From IMG/VR virus record IMGVR_UViG_3300020045_009791, positions 1 through 35,781 of that record: a stretch of 35,781 nt of DNA, one strand, 5' to 3'. Under the pieces are notes generated by a model, which did no database searches, was not told the origin of the DNA, and was given only the letters and a program-made list of their open reading frames with translations. The position numbers were made by a program, and so were the translations under genes. Shown here one piece after another: positions 3,519-28,983 of the stretch (positions are counted from its first letter, which is position 1; each line of letters begins with the position of its first letter). The stretch is from a virus. Taxonomy: Duplodnaviria > Caudoviricetes.

Positions 3519-5135
3519 ATGTCAAACCCTCAAAACCCGCTTGTGCAGCAAAACATGCTGGACAAGCTCATCACCTACGTGGCACCGGGCCTGGCTGTCC
3601 GGCGCATGACCCAGCGTGGCCAGCTCGCCTTGTCTGGCGGCTACACCGGCGCCCGCATTGACCGTGCCCAGCTCAGCCGCTACACCCCCACCGCGGGAAG
3701 CCCTAACACCGACACCATCCGCGATTTGCCCATGCTGCGCGCCCGCAGCCGTGACCAAATGCGCAACGCCCCCGTAGCGCTGGGCGCACTCAACACACAG
3801 GTGAGCCACGTGGTGGGCACCGGCCTGACCTACACCCCGGCCATCGATGCCAAGTTTTTGCGCCTGACGCCTGAGCAAGCCGCCGACTGGGCCGCCGACT
3901 CCAAACGCCGTTTTGAAGCCTGGGCCGAGTCGCCCGACTGTGATCTGGCCCGTGAGCTGGACTTTTATGGCATCCAGGAGCTGGGTTTTCGGTCGTTTCT
4001 GGAATCTGGCGACAGCTTTGTCATCACCCCACGCGTGCCTCGCGCAGGCCGTGGCATACAACTGGCCCTACAGCTGCTGGAAGCCGACCACATTTGCAAC
4101 CCTGACCGCAAGCCAGACACTGACATCCTGGTCAACGGGGTGGAAATTAACCCAAATACAGGTGAAAAAACCGCCGTGCATGTGGCAAAAAAGCACCCCG
4201 GCGCCTATGGCATCACCGGCAACACCTGGCAGCGTGTGGCCATGCGTGGCGCTGGTACCGGGCGGCGCAATGTGCTGCACATTTTCAAACCGTTGCGCCC
4301 TGGCCAGGTGCGCGGAATACCGCTGATTGCCCCCATTCTTGAGCCCCTCAAGCAGCTGGGTACCTGGTCAGACGCTGAGCTTAATGCCGCCGTGACCAGT
4401 GCCCTGATGTCAGTGTTTGTCAAGATGGACCCCGAAGCCTTTGACACCTTGTACGACGAAGACGCTCAGGGAAAAATTGTGGAGACTGCCAGCAAGTGGT
4501 CGGGCGCCATGGAATCCGGCAAGGCCATCAACCTGCTGCCTGGTGAAAGCATTGAAAGCCCCACACCTGGCCGCCCAAACCCCGCCTTTGACCCGTTCTG
4601 GACCGCCATGGTGCGCCAGATCGGCATGGCCCTTGAGATGCCATTTGAGGTGCTGGTGATGCACTTCCAAAGCAGCTACAGCGCCGCCCGTGCCGCGCTG
4701 CTGATGGCCTGGAAAGCCTTCCGTGCCAAGCGTGATTTGCTGGCCAAAACCCTGTGCCAGCCCGTGCTTGAGCTGTGGCTGGCCGACGAAGTGGCCGCCG
4801 GGCGCATCAACTGCCCCGGCTTTTTTGTTGACCCGATCGTGCGCGCTGCCTGGTGCAGCGCCATCTGGACGGGTGACGGCCCCGGCTCCATCGACCCCGG
4901 TAAAGAAGTGGACGCCGCACAGAAGCGGGTCGACCTTGGCATCAGCACCAAGCAGGCCGAATCCATTGCCTTTGACGGTGTGGACTGGCAGCAAAAGCAC
5001 GACCAGCGCGTCAAAGAAATCAACGCTGAAAAGCGCGACGGCATCTATGTGCTGCCCGCTGGCAGCCCGGCGCCACTTCCCGAACAAGACCAACCCGATC
5101 AACCTGATCAACCAGACCAAACGGACAAACCCTAG
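3519..5135 (+). CDS. Portal protein, lambda family
   Basis: 538 aa with LRARSRD, RPGQVRGIP, SSYSAARAAL and IDPGKE motifs typical of lambda gpB-type portals. Confidence 0.95.
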   Translation: MSNPQNPLVQQNMLDKLITYVAPGLAVRRMTQRGQLALSGGYTGARIDRAQLSRYTPTAGSPNTDTIRDLPMLRARSRDQMRNAPVALGALNTQVSHVVGTGLTYTPAIDAKFLRLTPEQAADWAADSKRRFEAWAESPDCDLARELDFYGIQELGFRSFLESGDSFVITPRVPRAGRGIQLALQLLEADHICNPDRKPDTDILVNGVEINPNTGEKTAVHVAKKHPGAYGITGNTWQRVAMRGAGTGRRNVLHIFKPLRPGQVRGIPLIAPILEPLKQLGTWSDAELNAAVTSALMSVFVKMDPEAFDTLYDEDAQGKIVETASKWSGAMESGKAINLLPGESIESPTPGRPNPAFDPFWTAMVRQIGMALEMPFEVLVMHFQSSYSAARAALLMAWKAFRAKRDLLAKTLCQPVLELWLADEVAAGRINCPGFFVDPIVRAAWCSAIWTGDGPGSIDPGKEVDAAQKRVDLGISTKQAESIAFDGVDWQQKHDQRVKEINAEKRDGIYVLPAGSPAPLPEQDQPDQPDQPDQTDKP

Positions 5136-5146
5136 GAGTAAACCCC

Positions 5147-6781
5147 ATGGCATCTAACGCAACCTCACTACTCACGCAGGGCATCATCGCGCAAGCGGCC
5201 ATTGCCAAAAATCAACCGATTACAAAGACCGGCACAGTGGCCGCTGCAGGCGGCACCTGCATTGGCTTTTCGCAAACGTCCGCCGCCATTGGCGAGCGCG
5301 TCGGCGTCACGGTGTTGGGCTCAGGTATCGGTGTGGCGGGTGGCACCATTGCGGCCAATGCAGCGCTGCAAGTGGGCGCCAATGGCACGGTCATCACGCA
5401 GTCAACTGGCGCCATCATCGGGCGGGCCATGAATGCCGCGGTGATTGGTGATCACGTCGAAGTGTTCATTGCGCCGCACGGCAATGTGTCGTCTGGGGAG
5501 AATCCCGTCACCGGGGGGAATGATTTTTCTGGAGATGTAAGCACGCTCAAATTGCCAGCGGGGGTAACGGATTTGACTGCTGGAGTTGGCGGTGGTAGCG
5601 GGCGTACTCAGATCGGACTTGTGATATTCGGCCAATCAAACGAGCGCGGAAACAGCGAGCTTGTGAGTAGCACCGCAGTCAACCAGATGACGGCATACCC
5701 GCAGGCTTTCCGAAGCCTTGTAAATTCCAACATCACATCCTATTTTCCAGGTGTGAATCAGCTTACAAAGCTCGCTGCGGATAGCCAGCTCTACCCGCTT
5801 GGGTCTGCTTGGTGCAAGGTATACGATGACCTTTATGCCGCAGGCTACGAGGCACACATTTACAACGCATCCATTGGTTCGTTGTCGTTTTTCAAAGATG
5901 CAGTAGGCTTCCCACGCCCACGGCTTAATAGCAGCACTGATTTCCGTCAGCGCCGCGCTGCTGGCACTTTTGGCCCTACCGACCTTGGATGCCAAGGGAC
6001 TGTAACAATCCAGAACAGCTACGCTTTTGAATGCACAACTGGAAGCGACTTTATCGCCGTACTGAGGAATCAAGGCGCAAAGATTGTAAATTCGTCTGGA
6101 GACACGATACCCGATGCACTGGATTACATTCGCACCCCAACCCTGGCAAAGAAGGCGCTTGCCGCAGTTGCTCCAGACTTTACGGCAGCAACAGCACTAG
6201 GTTCCACCGTAACCGATGGCGCGTGTGTCTGGACAAATATCGGCCTCGCTTCGACGCTGGGCTATACCAGTGCGATTCCGTTTCAGCCAAAATCATTACT
6301 CGGGGATGTGGCTGGGTTTGATCCATACGGTATTGCTCGTCGAGCAGCTCAAGCGGCACAAGAAATGCGGATGCGTGGTGTGTCTAAAATCATTGTTTAT
6401 ATCTGCAATGGGCAATCCGATGCCGCCTCCACGTCACAGTCAAATTACGCCTTTTGCCTTCAATATTTGGCGCAGTTTTTCCGGTCGCAGGGATTTGAGG
6501 TGTGCATCGGGCTTTCGACTTACACACGTACAGACGCCACAGCCGGGTGGGATGCACTTGTGGCCGCTAGAACTTCGGCATTGGCTGCACTTTCTTCCGA
6601 CACTGGGGTGCACGTAGGTGCTGATCTTTACACGCTCATGGGGAACATAGAAGGCGCAAATGGTTTGACGTACAACACCGCCGGGGCGGTGGGCGACAAC
6701 AACGCGCACATCAATGCACAGGCTCAGATTGTGGCGGGCGGGCATCATTCGGAAGCGATTTTGGCAGCACTGGCGACATAA
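5147..6781 (+). CDS. Fusion: DUF2190-like capsid decoration domain + SGNH/sialate O-acetylesterase-like domain
   Basis: The first ~110 aa are paralogous to 9299..9640 (GFSQT..AIG.RV.VTV.G, IGRA..AA..GD..EV). The remainder has GQSN, NGQSD and DNNAH SGNH-type blocks. RBS is AGGAG. Confidence 0.8.
   Translation: MASNATSLLTQGIIAQAAIAKNQPITKTGTVAAAGGTCIGFSQTSAAIGERVGVTVLGSGIGVAGGTIAANAALQVGANGTVITQSTGAIIGRAMNAAVIGDHVEVFIAPHGNVSSGENPVTGGNDFSGDVSTLKLPAGVTDLTAGVGGGSGRTQIGLVIFGQSNERGNSELVSSTAVNQMTAYPQAFRSLVNSNITSYFPGVNQLTKLAADSQLYPLGSAWCKVYDDLYAAGYEAHIYNASIGSLSFFKDAVGFPRPRLNSSTDFRQRRAAGTFGPTDLGCQGTVTIQNSYAFECTTGSDFIAVLRNQGAKIVNSSGDTIPDALDYIRTPTLAKKALAAVAPDFTAATALGSTVTDGACVWTNIGLASTLGYTSAIPFQPKSLLGDVAGFDPYGIARRAAQAAQEMRMRGVSKIIVYICNGQSDAASTSQSNYAFCLQYLAQFFRSQGFEVCIGLSTYTRTDATAGWDALVAARTSALAALSSDTGVHVGADLYTLMGNIEGANGLTYNTAGAVGDNNAHINAQAQIVAGGHHSEAILAALAT
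5501..5533 (+). other. Putative recombination site, left end of cassette (inside the decoration-fusion ORF, encodes NPVTGGNDFSG)
   Basis: AATCCCG-TCACCGG-GGGGAATGATTTTTCTGGA sits at the domain and composition boundary and is related to the site at 6938-6963. Confidence 0.6.
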
Positions 6782-6937
6782 AGATGGTAATCAGAACCGA
6801 ACTAGGCCAAGGCAAAACTAGGCCCGTGCTACTGAGTGTAGGTAGGGTCAAAAAAGTCAGGCTGCTGATTTTGGGCAGCAGCAATGAACGGTGGTGGAAT
6901 TTAGGCGACGAAGATCGCAAGCTCCAGCCTCCGCAAA

Positions 6938-6963
6938 TCAAGAAAACCTAATCCCCTCATCAC
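6938..6963 (+). other. Putative recombination site, right end of cassette
   Basis: TCAAGAAAACCTAATCCCC-TCATCAC. The arm is an imperfect inverted repeat of 5515-5533 (14/19). AATCCCCTCA is a 9/10 direct repeat of AATCCCGTCA at 5501. Confidence 0.6.
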
Positions 6964-6976
6964 GCGGCACGCCCCT

Positions 6977-7882
6977 ATGTCCCTGCTGTCACACACTCTG
7001 GGGCGGATCATGCCCCGCTACCGGACACTGCGGCAGTGGGGTGATGTGTACAGCCAGATCATTGGTGGCAGGCCGATCAGCGACAAGACCAAAGCCAACC
7101 GTCGCAGCGCCCTGGTGCATGTGATGGATGGCCTGGGCAGTAAGACCATTTCTGCCATTCGCCCGCATGAGGTGGCCAGTCTGATCAACGGCATTGCGTT
7201 GGCGCACCCCAGCACGGCCAAGCGGGTGCTGTTTGAGGCCCGTGATGTGTTTGACCAAGCCATCAATTACGGCTGGATTGACAGAAACCCAGCCAGCGCC
7301 GTGAAGCCGCCCGTGGTGCGTGTGCAGCGCAAGCGTTTGACCCTTGAGCAATGGCAGGCAATCCACGCCCAGGCCATGGCCACCATGCCGCCTTGGGTCG
7401 CCCACATGATGACCCTGGCGCTGGTGACCGGGCAACGGCGCAGCGACTTGGTAAAAATGAAATTCAGTGACGTGTGGGATGACCACCTGCACATTGAGCA
7501 GCTCAAGACTGGCGCCCGCCTGGCCTTGCCCCTTACCCTGAAGCTGGATGCTTTGGACCTGACGCTGCAGGCAGCCATTGCCGCCTGCAGCGATTACGCC
7601 GTGGGCAAAGACTACCTGCTGCGTAAACACAATGGCCAGCAGCTGGTGGACGCCAGTCTGTCAGCCCGGTTTGAAGAAGCGCGGGATGCCGCCTTGCCCG
7701 CCAGCCGCACCGGCCACCCGCCATCTTTGCATGAGTGCCGCTCACTGGCCGAGCGCCTTTACCGCATGCAGGGCATCAACACCATGGTGCTGCTTGGCCA
7801 CAAACACCAATCCATGACCGACATGTACCACGACGACCGGGGCCTGACCAAGGGCGAATGGAAAACGCTTTCACTTGCCTGA
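6977..7882 (+). CDS. Tyrosine recombinase, lambda-Int-like core-binding + catalytic domains, no arm-binding domain
   Basis: Catalytic set looks intact: TGQRRSD (R), QLKTG (K), HECRSL (HxxR), LLGHK (H), DMYHDDRG (Y). These resemble lambda Int HELRSL...LLGHK...YRDDRG. Only 301 aa. Confidence 0.93.
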   Translation: MSLLSHTLGRIMPRYRTLRQWGDVYSQIIGGRPISDKTKANRRSALVHVMDGLGSKTISAIRPHEVASLINGIALAHPSTAKRVLFEARDVFDQAINYGWIDRNPASAVKPPVVRVQRKRLTLEQWQAIHAQAMATMPPWVAHMMTLALVTGQRRSDLVKMKFSDVWDDHLHIEQLKTGARLALPLTLKLDALDLTLQAAIAACSDYAVGKDYLLRKHNGQQLVDASLSARFEEARDAALPASRTGHPPSLHECRSLAERLYRMQGINTMVLLGHKHQSMTDMYHDDRGLTKGEWKTLSLA

Positions 7883-7909
7883 TGCACACGTGTGCACAGC
7901 ATTTTTAAA

Positions 7910-7956
7910 AGTCGTCTCAATTTGCCCTATTTGAGACACTGACTTTTTGGGACATT
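7910..7956 (+). promoter_or_regulatory. Putative activator-dependent late promoter, copy 2
   Basis: Identical 29-mer to 3206-3234, then a -10-like GACATT at the same 12-nt spacing, 7 nt before the protease ATG. Confidence 0.7.
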
Positions 7957-7963
7957 CACTCCC

Positions 7964-9295
7964 ATGAAACTTCTTGATGTCCTCACCGCGCCATGGGCCA
8001 TAGAGCCAGCTAAGCTGCTGGAGATCCAGGCCATTTACGCCACGCACCTGCGCGGCGACAAGATCGACATCTCTGCGGTAGAGGCCAAGCTGGGCCGCCC
8101 GCTGGCCAATGAGCCAGCACCCTACCAGGTGCAAGATGGCGTGGCCATCATTGCGCTTGACGGTGTGATTGCCAAGCGTGCCAACCTGTTCATGCAAATC
8201 AGCGGTGGCACCAGCTCTGAGCTGATTGGGCGCGACTTTAAAACTGCGCTCTCTGACCCCGATGTGCACAGCATCATTTTGGCCATTGACAGCCCCGGCG
8301 GCACGGTCGACGGCACCATCAGCCTGGCTGACCTGGTGGTGGCATCCACCAAGCCCGTGGTGGCCCTGGCCAGCGGCACCATGGCCAGCGCTGCCTACTG
8401 GATTGGCTCTGCTGCCAATGCCGTCTACATCACCGATGCCACCACCGTGGTGGGCTCCATTGGCGTGGTAGCTACGCACACTGATGTGTCGCAGTCGCAA
8501 GCCACCCAGGGCATCAAAACCACCGAGATTGCCGCCGGTAAATACAAGCGCATTGCCAGCAGCTACGAGCCGCTGAGTATCGAAGGCCGCCAGACCATTC
8601 AAGACCAGGTGGACTACACCTACGCCTTGTTTGTGGATGCCGTGGCCAAGCAGCGCGGCACCAGCACCGACAAGGTGCTTACCGACATGGCCGACGGCCG
8701 CATTTTCATTGGGCAGCAAGCCATCGACGCGGGGCTGGTGGACGGTGTATCCACCCTTGACGCGCTGGTGCAGCAGCTCAACGCAAACCGCGCAAGCGGC
8801 AGCACAGGCTACCGGGCAAGTAAAAACCACGCGCCAGGTAGCCGTCACCCTCGCGCCGGTGTTGCGCAACCCCAAACCCAACCCAAAGGAGCAGCAATGC
8901 CCATTACCCGTGAACAACTCGCGGCCGAAGCACCTGACGTGCTCGCGGCCATCCGCCAAGAGGGTGCTGCCGATGAGCGCGCCCGCATCCAGGCCATTGA
9001 GTCTGTGGCCGTGCCCGGCCATGACGCGCTGATTGCCAGCCTGAAATTTGACGGCAAATCAACCGCTGGCGATGCCGCCCTGGCTGTGCTGTCTGCTGAA
9101 AAGCAAACGCGCAGCGCAGCCGCCACCGCGCTTGCCAATGACGCACCAGCCCCTGTGGCCGTGGTGCCTGGCGCCCCGGTCGAGGCCAAAGCGCTTAGCC
9201 GCACTGAGGTAGACCTGCAGGCCAAAGCCCACATGGCTGCCCACCCTGGCACCGACTACGTTGCCGCTGTCAAACACGTCCAAAAAGGAGCCTAA
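7964..9295 (+). CDS. S49-family prohead protease (lambda gpC-like) with C-terminal scaffold region
   Basis: IDSPGG, MASAAYWIGS and VGSIGV S49 motifs. C-terminal Ala-rich ERARI helical region. Confidence 0.93.
   Translation: MKLLDVLTAPWAIEPAKLLEIQAIYATHLRGDKIDISAVEAKLGRPLANEPAPYQVQDGVAIIALDGVIAKRANLFMQISGGTSSELIGRDFKTALSDPDVHSIILAIDSPGGTVDGTISLADLVVASTKPVVALASGTMASAAYWIGSAANAVYITDATTVVGSIGVVATHTDVSQSQATQGIKTTEIAAGKYKRIASSYEPLSIEGRQTIQDQVDYTYALFVDAVAKQRGTSTDKVLTDMADGRIFIGQQAIDAGLVDGVSTLDALVQQLNANRASGSTGYRASKNHAPGSRHPRAGVAQPQTQPKGAAMPITREQLAAEAPDVLAAIRQEGAADERARIQAIESVAVPGHDALIASLKFDGKSTAGDAALAVLSAEKQTRSAAATALANDAPAPVAVVPGAPVEAKALSRTEVDLQAKAHMAAHPGTDYVAAVKHVQKGA
8897..9295 (+). CDS. Nested in-frame scaffolding protein (Nu3-like)
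   Basis: Internal AAAGGAG Shine-Dalgarno just upstream of in-frame ATG 8897 (MPITREQL...), as in lambda C/Nu3. Confidence 0.65.
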   Translation: MPITREQLAAEAPDVLAAIRQEGAADERARIQAIESVAVPGHDALIASLKFDGKSTAGDAALAVLSAEKQTRSAAATALANDAPAPVAVVPGAPVEAKALSRTEVDLQAKAHMAAHPGTDYVAAVKHVQKGA

Positions 9296-9298
9296 ATC

Positions 9299-9640
9299 AT
9301 GGCCGCATCTGCTATTGCAACCCTCACGGTCGGCGTAACCGCTGCCGTTGCCCTTACCCAATACCGTGCTGTGACCGCCGCCGGTGCCATTCCTGCAGCT
9401 GCAGCCAATGCCGTTGGCTTTAGCCAAACTGCGGGTGCCATCGGTGACCGCGTGCCGGTCACTGTGGGCGGTACTGCCCTGGCCACTGCAGGCGCCGCCA
9501 TTGCGGTGGGCGCTGCTGTAGAGGTGACGGGCGCCGTGGGCAAGGTAGCCACCAAGTCTGCTGGTGTGGCCATTGGCCGCGCGCTCACTGCTGCAGCTGC
9601 AGACGGTGACCTGATCGAAGTGTTGGTGCTCTCCAACTAA
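9299..9640 (+). CDS. Capsid decoration/cement protein (DUF2190-like)
   Basis: 113 aa, Ala/Gly/Val-rich, ends IGRALTAAAADGDLIEVL, located between protease and major capsid. Confidence 0.85.
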   Translation: MAASAIATLTVGVTAAVALTQYRAVTAAGAIPAAAANAVGFSQTAGAIGDRVPVTVGGTALATAGAAIAVGAAVEVTGAVGKVATKSAGVAIGRALTAAAADGDLIEVLVLSN

Positions 9641-23249: not shown

Positions 23250-23473
23250 TCAATCTGCTTGACCCCACCCCGACCACACCCGCCGACATTGCCAGCACAC
23301 GGGGCAATGCCAAGCTCAGCCAGCAAGCCGCCGCCGATTTGATTGGCTACAGCAGGCGTGGCTGGCAAGATGCTGAGGCTGGCAAGACAAAGATGCACCC
23401 GGCAGCCTGGGCGCTGTTTTTGCTGGCTACGGGGCAGCATGCGGCGTATGTGGCGGTGGCTGTCAAGCCCTAA
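23246..23473 (+). CDS. Small XRE-type HTH repressor, Aca/KorC-like
   Basis: 75 aa from ATG 23246: TPADIASTRGNAKLSQQAAADLIGYSRRGWQDAEAGKTKMHPAAWALF. Confidence 0.85.
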   Translation: MINLLDPTPTTPADIASTRGNAKLSQQAAADLIGYSRRGWQDAEAGKTKMHPAAWALFLLATGQHAAYVAVAVKP

Positions 23474-24539
23474 CCATCTTCACCCCAAGCGCCTCAAACC
23501 ACGCCCCGGCTTCGTATTTGTCACCCGCCTGGCGCAAGTGGGTGTAGCGCTGCAGCGACTTCCACGACCGGTGGCCACTGACACACGCGGCGCGCGGGAT
23601 GCTCCAGCCCAGCTCAAACAGGCGGCTGATACCGTCATGCCGCAAGTCATGAAAATGCAAGTCCTCAATGCCCAAAAAAGTACAGGCGCGGGTGAATGAT
23701 GCGCTGACAGACTCGGCGTTGTAGGGCCAAATGCGCTCACTGGTGCGTGGCTGCGCGTTGATCAGCGCCAGGGCTTCGGGGGTGAGGGTGGTGGTGACAT
23801 CATTGCCAATTTTCTCGCCTGGGTTTTTCATGTCGCGCACCACTAGTTCCAGGTGCTCAGCGCTCAAATCGGCCCATGTGACGCGGGTGATTTCTTCTTG
23901 TCGGCGGGTACTGAAAATGGCAAACGCGATGATGGCGCGCATGGGTGTGGCGCTGGGGCGCTTGAGTTCGCTCACCGCGTAGTGGCGCATCAGGCGCTCC
24001 AGCTCGGGCAGGGTGGGGCGGCGTGTGCGCTCTTTTGATCTGCCGATGATGCCCATTTTGTCAAGCACCACGCGCGCGTCTGCCATGGCCTGCGCGTCCA
24101 GCGGGTAGCCCCAGGCGGGCTTGGCCACGGTCATGACAGCCGATAAGTGAGACATGTAATTTGCCACAGTTTGGGGCTGTGCCTTGATCGACTTGGCATA
24201 AGCCACCAAGGCTTGACTGGTGACCTCTGAGCAGCGCAGCGCACCAAGGCTTGAGAGCTTGATGGTGTTGAGCACCTGGTCTTTGGTCTTGCCGTGCGGC
24301 CGCAAGGTGTCGGCGTTGTATTGGTTGATGACCTCAAGCAGGGTGGGGTCGCTGGGCTTGTCAAGAGCGCCAGGCACAGCCAATTCAGCCCGCCGCTTGG
24401 CACGCCAGGCGGTAGCGGCTGGCTTCCGGTCGAATGTTTTAGACTCGGTGTAGATGACTTTGCCCCCGCGCTTGAGGCGTATTTGCGCCGTGTGGCCCAT
24501 GGTGCCGTCACTGCGCTTGCGTGATGTGATGCCTGCCAA
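23463..24539 (-). CDS. int: Phage integrase (tyrosine recombinase, dusA-associated type)
   Basis: Likely TTG start at 24539 after GGAGA. Motifs STRRQEEI, DMKNP, FHDLRH, SGHRSW and RYTH. Adjacent to a dusA-like attP. Confidence 0.93.
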   Translation of the reverse strand: MAGITSRKRSDGTMGHTAQIRLKRGGKVIYTESKTFDRKPAATAWRAKRRAELAVPGALDKPSDPTLLEVINQYNADTLRPHGKTKDQVLNTIKLSSLGALRCSEVTSQALVAYAKSIKAQPQTVANYMSHLSAVMTVAKPAWGYPLDAQAMADARVVLDKMGIIGRSKERTRRPTLPELERLMRHYAVSELKRPSATPMRAIIAFAIFSTRRQEEITRVTWADLSAEHLELVVRDMKNPGEKIGNDVTTTLTPEALALINAQPRTSERIWPYNAESVSASFTRACTFLGIEDLHFHDLRHDGISRLFELGWSIPRAACVSGHRSWKSLQRYTHLRQAGDKYEAGAWFEALGVKMVRA

Positions 24540-24552
24540 AATGAGGTCTCCA

Positions 24553-24799
24553 GTGCTACGCGGGTTTTCGCGTAGCACCGAATGTAGCACTTAGTATTAA
24601 GAAATAGCACCAAATGACCGTAAACGAGATAGAACGAGACACGCAAAAACCAGAACGGCTCATTGGTAAAAGTGCGTTTGAGAGGGGGCATAGGGTTTGT
24701 GTGGCCCCTATGCTCGATTGGACTGATAAATAAAAAAAACCTAATCAAATCAATTACTTGTCTGATTAGGTTTTTAGCGTGTAGCACGCTGCGTAGCAC
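24553..24799. mobile_element. attP region
   Basis: GTAGCAC arm-type repeats at 24553 (inverted), 24572, 24584, 24781 and 24793. IHF consensus AATCAATTACTTG at 24748-24760 inside a 13-bp dyad. dusA-like core near 24698-24727. Lies between int and the xis-like gene. Confidence 0.85.
24614..24733 (+). pseudogene. dusA: Replacement 5' end of host dusA carried in attP
   Basis: 39-aa ORF MTVNEIERDTQKPERLIGKSAFERGHRVCVAPMLDWTDK*, ending in the DusA N-terminal signature VAPMLDWTD. Confidence 0.85.
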
Positions 24800-25636: not shown

Positions 25637-26127
25637 GCTGTGGCCTCTTGGGCTTGGCTGCCGTACAGCACCACGCCGGTGGCGCCAATGACGCCACGGG
25701 CAGACCTGACGGCGCGCAGGTATTCGGACCGGCTTAATTGGCGGCACTGGAAGGTGTGCAGCGTGACAAATTCAGCCAGCGCGGTGACCTCTTGGTGATG
25801 CAGGCCGGTGCTGCCCCAGGTGCCGTGCTGTGTGATGCGGTCCCAGATGGCATCAAGCGCGGTGTCTGCGGCAGTGATGACGCTGGTGAGGCCGCGCACC
25901 ACGCGTTGGCGCTCAATCATTTGGGCGGTGGTGATGGCGCCTTTGAGGATGCTGAATTGCAGCTCTGTGATGGTGCCGGTGCGCAGGGCTGCAAATGATG
26001 TCTGCAGGACGTGGACCACGGTGTCCATGTCGGCAGTGGGTGGCTTAGCGGCGCGGTGCATGGCAATGGCCATGGTGTCGGCAGTGGGTTGCCAGCGGGG
26101 TTTGCGGGGGATGCGGGCGCCGTTCAT
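25633..26127 (-). CDS. Hypothetical phage early protein
   Basis: 164 aa, coupled by overlaps to both neighbours. Confidence 0.7.
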   Translation of the reverse strand: MNGARIPRKPRWQPTADTMAIAMHRAAKPPTADMDTVVHVLQTSFAALRTGTITELQFSILKGAITTAQMIERQRVVRGLTSVITAADTALDAIWDRITQHGTWGSTGLHHQEVTALAEFVTLHTFQCRQLSRSEYLRAVRSARGVIGATGVVLYGSQAQEATA

Positions 26128-28352
26128 GGGGTGGCCTCAGGCACTTCAGACAAATCAGCTGCATCAAATGCGCACATGCCGCCGGTGCGGCCACGGAAGG
26201 TGACCATCCAGCGGTTTTCGCCGTCGATTTGCTGGGTGATGGTGCCTACTTTGCCGCAGTATTTGTGCTGGGTGAGGGGCAAACGGGCATGGTCGGGGGT
26301 GATGACTACGCGCATGTCCACAGCCAGAGCCGCACCCGCACCGCCCAGAGCGCAAGCGTCGGGTGGGGTGGACGTGGCTACTGGCTGGCTACAGGCGTTA
26401 CCTTCGTCGCTCTGCGCGGTAGCGCCTGGATTGGTATCCTGGGCTTGCAACGCGGCGGCTATTTGGGCCTGCGCCTGCGCAGCGGTGGTTTTTGTTTTTG
26501 GGCCTTTTGGCCCCCGCACCCCACCAGCTTGCGCAGCAGAGGGAAGGGGTAGAAGCGGTTTTGCAGGGGTGGATGGGGTGATTTTGAAGGCTTCTTTGTC
26601 CTGGCCGTCTGCCACCAGTGCGGCCAGCCAGCGGGGCATCAGGCCGCGACCGCTCCAGGTCTCGCCGTTGGGGCCGCGATAGCCGGTGGCGGTGATGTCG
26701 GTGCCTTTGAGCTGGGCTTTGAGGGCCTTGAGTTCGTCGGCATAGGTGTCACGCACGGCCGCAGCGGCTTCAGCTTCGACGCAATCCAGATCCACATTCA
26801 CCTCAAAAGCCAGCGCCTCGATCAGCGTGGGGTCTTCGATGTCGCCATAAAAATAGTCGGGGCAGTCGTCCAGCACCAGGTACAAGGCTAGCGCCTGATA
26901 CAACCTGCTGGAATCACACCGCTGCACATGCAGGCGCACCTGGGTGGTATGCATGTCGCTCAATTCACCGGCGTTCTTACTCTCTGGCTTGAGCAGGTCA
27001 AGGCCAAATACACGCGCCAGGTCAGTGTTTGACAATTCATCCACCTGACGCAGCCACCAGGCACGCAGCATATTGGCAGACAGCAGCTCACGCGCCACCT
27101 CCACTTTGTCCAGGTCATGCACTGCATCCGCCAGCGCCTCAAACGCATCAGCACGAAAACGCTTGGTGATGTCTTTTTGCGCTTTGTCCTGCAGGCGCTT
27201 GATGTCGGCCTCGATGTCGTTGGCGGGCTTTTGTTTGGCTTGCACGGCTTTGACCAGGCCGCGTGCCAGCAGCATGGCTTCGGCCTCTGCGGTGGGTACG
27301 GCGGCAATGAGTTCTTTGGTCCAGGGGTTTTCGATGAGGACGGCGGCGCCCAGGTCTTTGCCCAGCAGCTGGCCCAGGGTGGCGGGCTGGTCGGTGGTGG
27401 TGTCGGTGCGCTCTTGGGTGAGGGGGCTGTAGCCGTCGAGGTAGTTGCTGTGCTGGCTGCAGATGTCGCCAGCTTCGTCGCCGTCGATCAGGCGCATGCC
27501 GCGCTTGGCGGCGGTGTCGAGCACGCTACAGCGGTGGGCGGCTTCCTTTTCATGGAAGCAAACGGGGTCGGTGCAGATGTCTGCACCTTGCACGTCAGCA
27601 AACAGGTCGGGGTTGGCGCCGGTGCGTTTGGGGCAGGTGGTGCAGTTGCCCACGCCGATCACCAGGGTGGAGTCGGCGGGGTTGAAGGTGGCACGGTCCA
27701 GGCGCAGCATGACATTGGCTTGGAGCCAGTTTTGCAGGGCACGCACGCTGCAGGGTTGGCCGCCAAAGTCTGGGCGGGTGGCTTCTGCCAGGGCTTTGGT
27801 TTGCAGGGTGGTGTCTGGGATGCGGGCAATGAGCAGGGCACGGCTGGCGTCGATCTGGCCTTCGCGCAGGGCGTGTTTGCACTCTACGGACAGGTCAAGC
27901 AGTTTGAGGCGGCCATAGACGTAACTGCGGCTTTTGCCGATCTTGCTGCCCACGGCTTCGGCGGTGAGCTGGCTGGCTTGCATGAGGGTGTCATAGCCTT
28001 CGGCTTCTTCAAGTTCAGTGAGGTCGTCACGCTGCAAGTTTTCAACGAGCTGGATTTCAAGCACCTGGTGGTCGTCAAGGTCGCGCACCAGGGCGGGGAT
28101 GGTGGCCAGGCCTGCGAGTTGGCTGGCACGGTAGCGGCGCTCACCGGCGACGATCTCATGGGTGGTGCCACGGCTGGTATCGGCCACGCGGCTGCCGGGC
28201 AGGGGGCGCACCAGAATGGGCTGGTGCACGCCACTGGCTTTGATGGACTCGGCCAGCTCGGACAGCTTGACCGGGTTGAAGGTTTTGCGTGGGTTGGTGG
28301 TGCTGCTGACGATGGCAGACAGGGGCAGGGTGGCGAAGGTGTTGGTGGTCAT
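26124..28352 (-). CDS. ParB/Spo0J-family protein with Cys cluster, H-NS-type DNA-binding domain and C-terminal SH3/KOW-like domain
   Basis: Start 28352 after AGGAG. Motifs NPRKTF, GVHQPILVR, AGERRYRA, ENLQRDDL, CTTCPKRT..CTDPVC and YRGPNGETWSGRGLMPRWL. Confidence 0.88.
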   Translation of the reverse strand: MTTNTFATLPLSAIVSSTTNPRKTFNPVKLSELAESIKASGVHQPILVRPLPGSRVADTSRGTTHEIVAGERRYRASQLAGLATIPALVRDLDDHQVLEIQLVENLQRDDLTELEEAEGYDTLMQASQLTAEAVGSKIGKSRSYVYGRLKLLDLSVECKHALREGQIDASRALLIARIPDTTLQTKALAEATRPDFGGQPCSVRALQNWLQANVMLRLDRATFNPADSTLVIGVGNCTTCPKRTGANPDLFADVQGADICTDPVCFHEKEAAHRCSVLDTAAKRGMRLIDGDEAGDICSQHSNYLDGYSPLTQERTDTTTDQPATLGQLLGKDLGAAVLIENPWTKELIAAVPTAEAEAMLLARGLVKAVQAKQKPANDIEADIKRLQDKAQKDITKRFRADAFEALADAVHDLDKVEVARELLSANMLRAWWLRQVDELSNTDLARVFGLDLLKPESKNAGELSDMHTTQVRLHVQRCDSSRLYQALALYLVLDDCPDYFYGDIEDPTLIEALAFEVNVDLDCVEAEAAAAVRDTYADELKALKAQLKGTDITATGYRGPNGETWSGRGLMPRWLAALVADGQDKEAFKITPSTPAKPLLPLPSAAQAGGVRGPKGPKTKTTAAQAQAQIAAALQAQDTNPGATAQSDEGNACSQPVATSTPPDACALGGAGAALAVDMRVVITPDHARLPLTQHKYCGKVGTITQQIDGENRWMVTFRGRTGGMCAFDAADLSEVPEATP

Positions 28353-28371
28353 GGTGGTGGGCTCCTGGTGG

Positions 28372-28983
28372 CTAGGCCACGCGCCAGACGCGCACGGTGG
28401 CCGTGTCTGGGTAGCAGCGGGTCTTAAAGGTGCCGGTTTTGGCAGCGTGGGCACCGGTGACGCATTTGGACAGGGTGGCTTTGGCGCGGATGGGGAGCTG
28501 GGCGCTTTGGCCGGGCTTGAGCTTGGCAAGCAATGGCGTCCAGTCGGTGCGGCCGGTGCCGCGCTCGGGCAGGGGGATGTTGTCTTCAATCACGATGTCG
28601 TCAATGCCGGGCAACGGGGGCAGGGTGGCCCCGGCTTGGGTCAGGATGGCTTGCGGCTTTGTGGTGGCGGTTTTGCGGGGCCTGAGGGTGTTGGCGCGGT
28701 CGATGTCAATGCCGCCTGCACGGTCTGGGTCTGCACCAATGGCATTGAGGGTGGGCAGATTGGGGCCACGGCAGTAGATGTATTCGCCCTCGGATTGCAC
28801 GCGGCTGAGCAGGCCACTTTCAATGCAGCGGGACAGCAGGGTGTGCACGTTGCCGCGCACGGTGTCAAATTTGTCGGTGATGTCGTCCAGCCCCAGGGTT
28901 TCATCGGGGTTGTTGGTGAAAAAACCGCACATGTTGGATGCGAGGCTGCCAGCTTGGGGGGTGTAGGGTTTGTCATAGGCCAT
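28372..28983 (-). CDS. Hypothetical, probable DNA-binding protein
   Basis: 203 aa with RBS AGGAG, a winged-helix-like N-terminus and an IEDNIPLP...VRVWRV C-terminal domain. Confidence 0.7.
   Translation of the reverse strand: MAYDKPYTPQAGSLASNMCGFFTNNPDETLGLDDITDKFDTVRGNVHTLLSRCIESGLLSRVQSEGEYIYCRGPNLPTLNAIGADPDRAGGIDIDRANTLRPRKTATTKPQAILTQAGATLPPLPGIDDIVIEDNIPLPERGTGRTDWTPLLAKLKPGQSAQLPIRAKATLSKCVTGAHAAKTGTFKTRCYPDTATVRVWRVA

Follow-up and report, generated by a model that had tools for sequence, protein, structure and literature searches.

Layout of the locus

The stretch of DNA analyzed here (35.8 kb, IMG/VR record IMGVR_UViG_3300020045_009791; hereafter the window) is that of a lambda-like phage, and our subject is a payload cassette and a recombinase gene lying between its portal (3519-5135) and S49 protease (7964-9295) genes. 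Two open reading frames (ORFs) occupy this interval, the first encoding 544 aa (5147-6781) and the second 301 aa (6977-7882). The first joins a constant N-terminal part, which we call the anchor, to a C-terminal payload at a short site, L; a related site, R, lies just 5′ of the second, a tyrosine recombinase gene (Table 1). The initial annotation of the window had proposed a recombinase-linked exchange of C-terminal domains at the NP(V/L)TG motif of site L, and comparisons with related anchors and related phages support this, arguing strongly for swapping of payloads bounded by the two sites. The cassette, put earlier at about 1.43 kb, measures 1442 bp between the L and R spacers (5515-6956), with a short ORF between the payload stop and R.

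Table 1. Features of the locus and of its full-copy partner in the window.
Feature	Position	Strand	Basis or remark
Constant anchor: capsid cement (PF09956/DUF2190) domain, paralogue of 9299-9640	5147-5500	+	Profile, paralogue and structure-cluster matches
Site L, in frame as NPVTGGN: outer arm AATCCCG (5501-5507), spacer TCACCGG (5508-5514), inner arm GGGGAAT (5515-5521)	5501-5521	+	
Payload: SGNH-fold esterase-like domain with GQSN motif, fused in frame to the anchor	5515-6781	+	Fold model, invariant residues
55-codon ORF, stop codon within the inner arm of site R	6784-6951	+	Possibly not a gene
Site R: inner arm AAAACCT-AATCCCC (6943-6956), spacer TCATCAC (6957-6963), degenerate outer arm (6964-6970)	6943-6970	+	
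Arm-less lambda/HK022-Int-type tyrosine recombinase, 301 aa, catalytic R-K-H-R-H-Y intact	6977-7882	+	
TCAACAC, R-like pseudo-spacer within the recombinase gene	7776-7782	+	Point corresponding to the L336 join of site R to the recombinase tail
Ordinary cement gene adjoining the major capsid gene; full-copy partner of the anchor	9299-9640	+	

The identification of the 118-aa anchor as a DUF2190-like domain holds. It is 45% identical to the phage's own cement protein (E 8e-14), matches PHROG 673 (E 8.5e-14) and falls into PF09956/DUF2190 clusters of the ESM Atlas (features 0.95, template-modeling score 0.97); the match to Pfam PF09956 itself scored under the cut-off (E 0.0024), a PDB sequence search gave no useful match, and the AlphaFold model is poor, with a predicted local distance difference test score (pLDDT) of 48. 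The in-frame junction, ENPVTGG, was confirmed as real and comes with the change in codon style noted earlier: GC content at third codon positions is 0.68 for the anchor and drops to 0.52 for the payload (range in six other genes, 0.59-0.77).

The payload was modeled as an alpha/beta SGNH fold (pLDDT 73) whose nearest known structures are CE6-like and NanS esterases: in VIA-align, 2apj at Z 19.2 (root-mean-square deviation 3.7 over 218 aligned residues), 1zmb at Z 18.9 and NanS 3pt5 at Z 18.8. It also resembles a G7C tail-fibre domain (Z 14.3), and Foldseek alone gave a best E of about 0.01. The block-I Ser and the C-terminal His are invariant in 16/16 sequences. No close relative of this payload was found among the viral contigs searched; it also occurs on other anchors, in P0003 (72%) and P0010 (49%).

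Payloads change at fixed sites

To compare cassettes we assembled a catalog of 86 non-redundant L-R cassettes of 842-3283 bp from lambda-, HK97-, Mu- and P22-like phages, 28 of which come with the enzyme. All 13 flank-matched pairs, defined by both flanks being at least 75% alike, carry unrelated payloads: identity goes from 0.80 to 0.31 on crossing L and from 0.26 back up to about 0.76 on crossing R. These pairs are not 13 independent events because they come from four phage groups, two of them without an adjacent enzyme. The same pattern of replacement between matched flanks occurs in another clade (L101/L188).

Breaks at L are also evident around the window itself. Its anchor occurs with four other proteins, each continuing differently after NP(V/L)TG (P0017, P0019, P0021, P0022), and was found once without the site. 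The contigs of relatives, most of them 95-99% alike, depart from the window at positions 5515-5523 into seven different sequences, and this branching was seen in 4/4 runs from two studies, with two or three continuations per run in two of them. The same anchor thus carries unrelated C-termini, a check put forward in the initial annotation, and near-identical phages part exactly at the site. At R the converse was observed: payloads with identical ends are followed by unrelated DNA, with identity ending at the R spacer or 2 bases past it (L168/L169, which are Mu-like, versus L170/L171; also L172, L173 and L174).

Architecture of sites L and R

The relation between the two sites, claimed from the window alone, is borne out by a direct match of 14/21 bases between 5501-5521 and 6950-6970. 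They are also the top profile matches in the window at 33.2 and 27.5 bits, with the next best at 12.3 and 8.4, and their inner arms match at 14/19 positions as inverted repeats. A repeat finder run on 4500-8600 missed the pair, which emerged from homolog alignments. Both sites have an arm-7-arm layout, AATCCYN-TCACCGG-GGGGATT for L and AATCCCC-TCWKCAC-RAWGAT for R, and dyad symmetry peaks on the 7-bp center (L 0.70 versus at most 0.38 when shifted; R 0.55 versus at most 0.41). The inner-arm conservation of L extends to about 5526, and the R outer arm is visible mainly at loci without a following enzyme. HK022 attB has the same arm-spacer layout, 7+7+7 with a 7-bp overlap (PMC7736782).

The spacers of L and R are unlike in either orientation (TCACCGG versus TCWKCAC), sharing T1, C2 and C5. 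Variation in the R spacer is confined to positions 3-4, and the L spacer is TCACCGG in 82/86 cassettes and never of R type, a count biased by the profile used to find L. Judged from its codons, L is conserved at the DNA level: third codon positions read C,C,G in 44/46 sites and in 0/53 other (V/L)TG tripeptides, a contrast biased upward because the L sites were picked by profile. The spacer pair differs according to recombinase clade, as assigned here and below from a quick tree, with CGGGTGG-like plus CTCGCGC-like spacers in one other clade and GGTGTCA plus TGCCGGT in another.

Two further observations concern the sites. L168 and L169, which share phage and payload end, differ at spacer position 3 (A versus T), a difference that a heteroduplex or mixing during assembly could have left. 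The crossover repeat of the Bifidobacterium Rin system (PMC6109161) loosely resembles the R inner arm, which may be chance.

An arm-less recombinase

The recombinase consists of core-binding and catalytic domains only (PF22022 and PF00589). Over these it is 38-41% identical to lambda and HK022 Int and colinear with HK022 Int, with no large insert; about 60 N-terminal residues of HK022 Int are absent from it, and with them the arm-binding domain. All six catalytic residues are present, as in 68/68 close homologs, and in the quick tree arm-less and arm-bearing enzymes separate with a Shimodaira-Hasegawa-like approximate likelihood ratio support of 100. The description of an intact, arm-less recombinase distinct from the phage integrase therefore stands: the integrase ORF (23463-24590) is unrelated, with a best E of 0.13. 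Unlike the lambda and HK022 integrases, the enzyme sits in virion gene modules, in a phage with a separate integrase. It scores far under the XerC/XerD cut-offs, and no integron-integrase model was among its NCBIfam matches; IntI integrases carry an insert. GenBank phages yielded neither an arm-less enzyme above 41% identity nor an L region.

In L336, site R is joined straight to the last 31 recombinase codons, at a TC-NN-CAC look-alike of the R spacer found in 21/29 enzyme genes scored, and joining of this type is a possible route to enzyme-less cassettes. No site was found downstream of the recombinase stop (0/36 loci examined). Two other candidate features were rejected. The Int-h-like basic residue occupying Int position 174 occurs in 48/68 family members but also in 13/16 arm-bearing integrases, and is therefore no special adaptation; a fusion of anchor to recombinase after deletion would be in frame in the window, but the spacing is not conserved. 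Eight close arm-less homologs (L095, L098, L105, L177, L178, L179, L186, L197) have no detectable R site, several of them in a non-virion context, and may have another job.

Distribution and diversity of the cassettes

Four homolog scans gave 182 non-redundant recombinase matches. Arm-less loci were sorted by eye into 68 close to the window and including it (group A) and 34 more distant (group B), the remainder being arm-bearing integrases or fragments; two loci with ambiguous truncations (L071, L207) were left out of counts. The 14 matches in named genomes were from Comamonadaceae, Azonexaceae, Zoogloeaceae and similar, isolates of Dechloromonas and Rhodoferax among them, or were unrelated weak matches. 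Host phages are diverse, with lambda-, HK97-, Mu- and P22-type portals as well as a sheath. R lies within 170 nt 5′ of the enzyme in 51/68 group A loci (6/1190 control windows), and L, translated as (V/L)TG(G/R)I, is upstream in 29/80 loci with sufficient sequence (controls 2/74, 0/70 and 0/74); many of the 51 loci without a detected L fall in clades with other spacers.

Starting from the sites instead, the enzyme is frequently absent. The exact R pattern occurs at 96 viral loci, and an enzyme is adjacent at only 1/72 of those with sufficient downstream DNA, so that a requirement for an adjacent recombinase is not supported. L nevertheless lies 0.8-3.2 kb upstream of R in 40/57 R-pattern loci (controls 0/57, 0/63 and 1/63). 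Conversely, the 30 loci with the L pattern have R downstream in 18/22 cases and an enzyme in 2/22. Elsewhere in 30 records with enzyme-less cassettes, 14 of them at least 90% complete, no member of the recombinase family was found, and three had only distant integrases. One metagenome bin (G035) contains two prophages with the same spacers, the first HK97-type, whose complete cassette lacks the enzyme (L375, G035:C21), and the second Mu-like, with both a cassette and the enzyme (L156, G035:C32).

There is one cassette per locus: exactly one L and one R were found in 73/86 loci, and in 54/86 cassettes the stop of the fused ORF is no more than 20 nt from the R spacer. Tandem R sites surround a small passenger gene in L081 (7066-7343), L173 (7291-7978) and L277, the last of which combines the spacer types of two clades.

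Neither partner of the fusion is of one kind. Among the 46 of 60 anchors scanned, four belong to PF09956 and one, weakly, to DUF7302; the system is thus wider than decoration proteins, to which it had been assigned. Clustering of 73 payloads at 40% identity gives 67 clusters, and the 70 scanned of the 72 that were long enough comprise 19 GDSL/SGNH domains, four polysaccharide deacetylases, four others and 43 with no Pfam family. Five cassettes have two genes (P0022, L004, L083, L153, L309), such that the anchor gains a short PF24243-like peptide and the enzyme is encoded by a separate downstream gene, which suggests a non-covalent adaptor.

Proposed mechanism and alternatives

We think it likely that the cassettes move by a natural form of recombinase-mediated cassette exchange (RMCE), in which L recombines with L and R with R between co-resident phage genomes via a cointegrate, the enzyme often acting in trans. 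Our reasoning is that site pairs with unlike spacers are also the basis of engineered RMCE and of pdif modules. The arm-less recombinase would cut both L and R, and pairing would be restricted to L with L and R with R because strand exchange in the lambda family requires matching spacers. Crossover at one site pair would fuse two phage genomes sharing a cell into a cointegrate, which a further crossover at the remaining pair would resolve with the payloads exchanged; payloads would thereby escape both deletion and inversion, and the fusion would always come back in frame. Where a phage lacks the enzyme, a co-resident prophage or a co-infecting phage would supply it. The fusion in the window phage would join the capsid as a minor cement subunit and display the esterase, which is predicted to act on host surface polysaccharide. 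The restriction of R spacer variation to positions 3-4, the L336 join and the co-residence in G035 fit this exchange.

At the level of the community, we lean toward a broader hypothesis: unrelated Betaproteobacteria phages of freshwater and wastewater would share a heterospecific site pair, one member of it within a protein linker, as plug and socket for trading surface-enzyme domains in frame by natural RMCE, with the recombinase a public good provided by a minority and different spacer pairs marking separate trading pools.

Several observations sit uneasily with RMCE. Among the 86 cassettes, no pair had DNA-similar payloads with both flanks unrelated, and the contigs of relatives (the four runs from two studies) contained no cointegrate or rearranged joint, nor did any run contain the window payload. 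Because the contig ends after 36 nt of left flank common to L168 and L171, this pair demonstrates the R break alone, and joins of the L168 type are possibly assembly chimeras. The R outer arm is degenerate where an enzyme adjoins, the window included; L is absent from 17/57 R loci; and locating L by profile biases the spacer counts. The enzyme gene lies outside L-R, which leaves its spread to many phage types unaccounted for, and co-residence was seen in one of five host genomes checked, a metagenome bin. Finally, 43/70 payloads are without a Pfam family and most anchors without a known location.

An alternative, which we regard as unlikely, is that the payload is cut out as a circle by recombination of L with R despite their unlike spacers, and that another circle fills the empty site, whether through a heteroduplex as in Tn916 and CTnDOT or through an integron-like single exchange resolved by replication. 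The inner arms, mutual inverted repeats, are the best conserved part of the sites, as would suit such a reaction, and T1, C2 and C5 are common to both spacers, although this sharing fails in the other clades. An L spacer of R type was never seen, within the profile bias given above. A scan for hybrid empty sites gave a single match, outside an anchor context, whereas the L-spacer version of the pattern matches 24/86 cassettes; this test is weakened if empty phages are non-viable. The tandem R sites around passenger genes also favor excision, and circles formed by R with R may exist as a side reaction of capture or excision.

Relaxed homologous recombination of the RecT/Red-beta type at conserved boundary sequences, with the tyrosine recombinase a bystander or an autoregulated passenger, seems to us quite improbable. 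It would account for the rarity of an adjacent enzyme and for the lack of a family member elsewhere in the enzyme-less records, and Rad52-like phage proteins do recombine short, diverged homologies (PMC3945230). Against it, the conserved core spans about 20 bp and has dyad arms around a 7-bp center, the enzyme where present always lies just 3′ of R in phages of unrelated types, particular spacer pairs go with particular enzyme clades, and the L336 deletion occurred at a spacer look-alike matching only 5/7 bases.

A shufflon or on/off switch in which the enzyme flips the L-R segment, the mechanism suggested initially, would fit a constant N-terminus, a variable C-terminus and an adjacent arm-less enzyme, as in Rin (PMC6109161), as well as inner arms that are inverted repeats, but it is very improbable and already largely refuted, since an opposite-strand site was found in 0/86 loci, the spacers do not match once inverted, and the inverted reading has a median of 24 aa (8 in the window), reaching 150 aa or more in 1/86.

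Relation to known systems

The locus would work like pdif exchange with a shufflon-like outcome, and belongs with neither these two systems nor integrons. In the pdif (xrs) modules of Acinetobacter, recombined by XerCD, variable DNA between sites with unlike centers is replaced between co-resident replicons by a recombinase in trans; there is no excision, cointegrates form between matching sites, and modules are replaced (PMC11705084, PMC13141974), a two-step route with experimental support (PMC11705084). In the cassettes described here, too, replacement takes place between left spacers that match each other and right spacers that do so. However, pdif uses the host XerC/XerD pair, 11-6-11 dif sites with a 6-bp center, whole genes and plasmids, whereas here a single phage-borne lambda-Int derivative is paired with 7-7-7 sites with AATCCCN arms, one site is translated inside a gene so that the swap is of an in-frame domain, and the spacer pair is fixed across unrelated phages. 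Engineered RMCE with HK022 Int, or with heterospecific pairs for Cre and Flp, follows the same logic, and HK022 Int shares the enzyme family and 7-bp overlap as well (PMC7736782). Those are laboratory constructs, with full-length Int and attP arms in the HK022 case, in contrast to a natural system with an arm-less enzyme.

The shufflon comparison was originally drawn with R64 pilV/Rci. Shufflons and related switches (R64, Rin, Min, Gin, Cin) share with the window a constant N-terminus, a variable C-terminus, a crossover site within the gene and a second site past it, and Rin also has an arm-less tyrosine recombinase (PMC6109161). They invert silent cassettes held in cis between identical spacers, in contrast to the single cassette, unlike spacers, absence of inverted sites and repertoire spread over a phage community described here. 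Integrons, the other system initially invoked, resemble the present one in having a cassette pool across genomes, a recombinase beside a site and common integrase-less cassettes. We found no attC hairpin, credible empty site, IntI match or arrays, the nearest trace of an array being the tandem R sites in a few loci; cassettes are replaced rather than stacked, and the payload ORF is incomplete until fused. Our searches, confined to PMC open-access full texts and bioRxiv, returned no description of the system.

In known phage switches the alternatives are either stored in cis, as in Gin, Cin, Min and Rin, or subject to mutation, as in diversity-generating retroelements. Here other phages apparently carry the alternatives, with exchange taking place at fixed sites, and part of the phage mosaicism usually credited to relaxed or illegitimate recombination would thus have a mechanism of its own; this view predicts that surface enzymes are shared across lambda-, Mu-, HK97- and P22-like phages. 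For genome engineering, the system would also be a source of compact lambda-type recombinases reduced to their core, together with site pairs that are orthogonal by nature, and the site can serve as a DNA tag for a large pool of uncharacterized enzymes.

Other features of the window

Family and homolog searches with the 55-codon ORF found neither a family nor a homolog. No sigma-70 promoter was found in 5000-8050 and no Rfam match in 5000-8100. A perfect 14-bp palindrome (7883-7896) directly follows the recombinase stop, and a short inverted-repeat motif (7913-7938) lies 5′ of the protease gene; the stretch 7883-7938 is common to related phages. On the opposite strand, 26124-28589 encodes an 821-aa protein that combines a ParB N-terminal domain, a ParB helix-turn-helix domain and an H-NS C-terminal domain.

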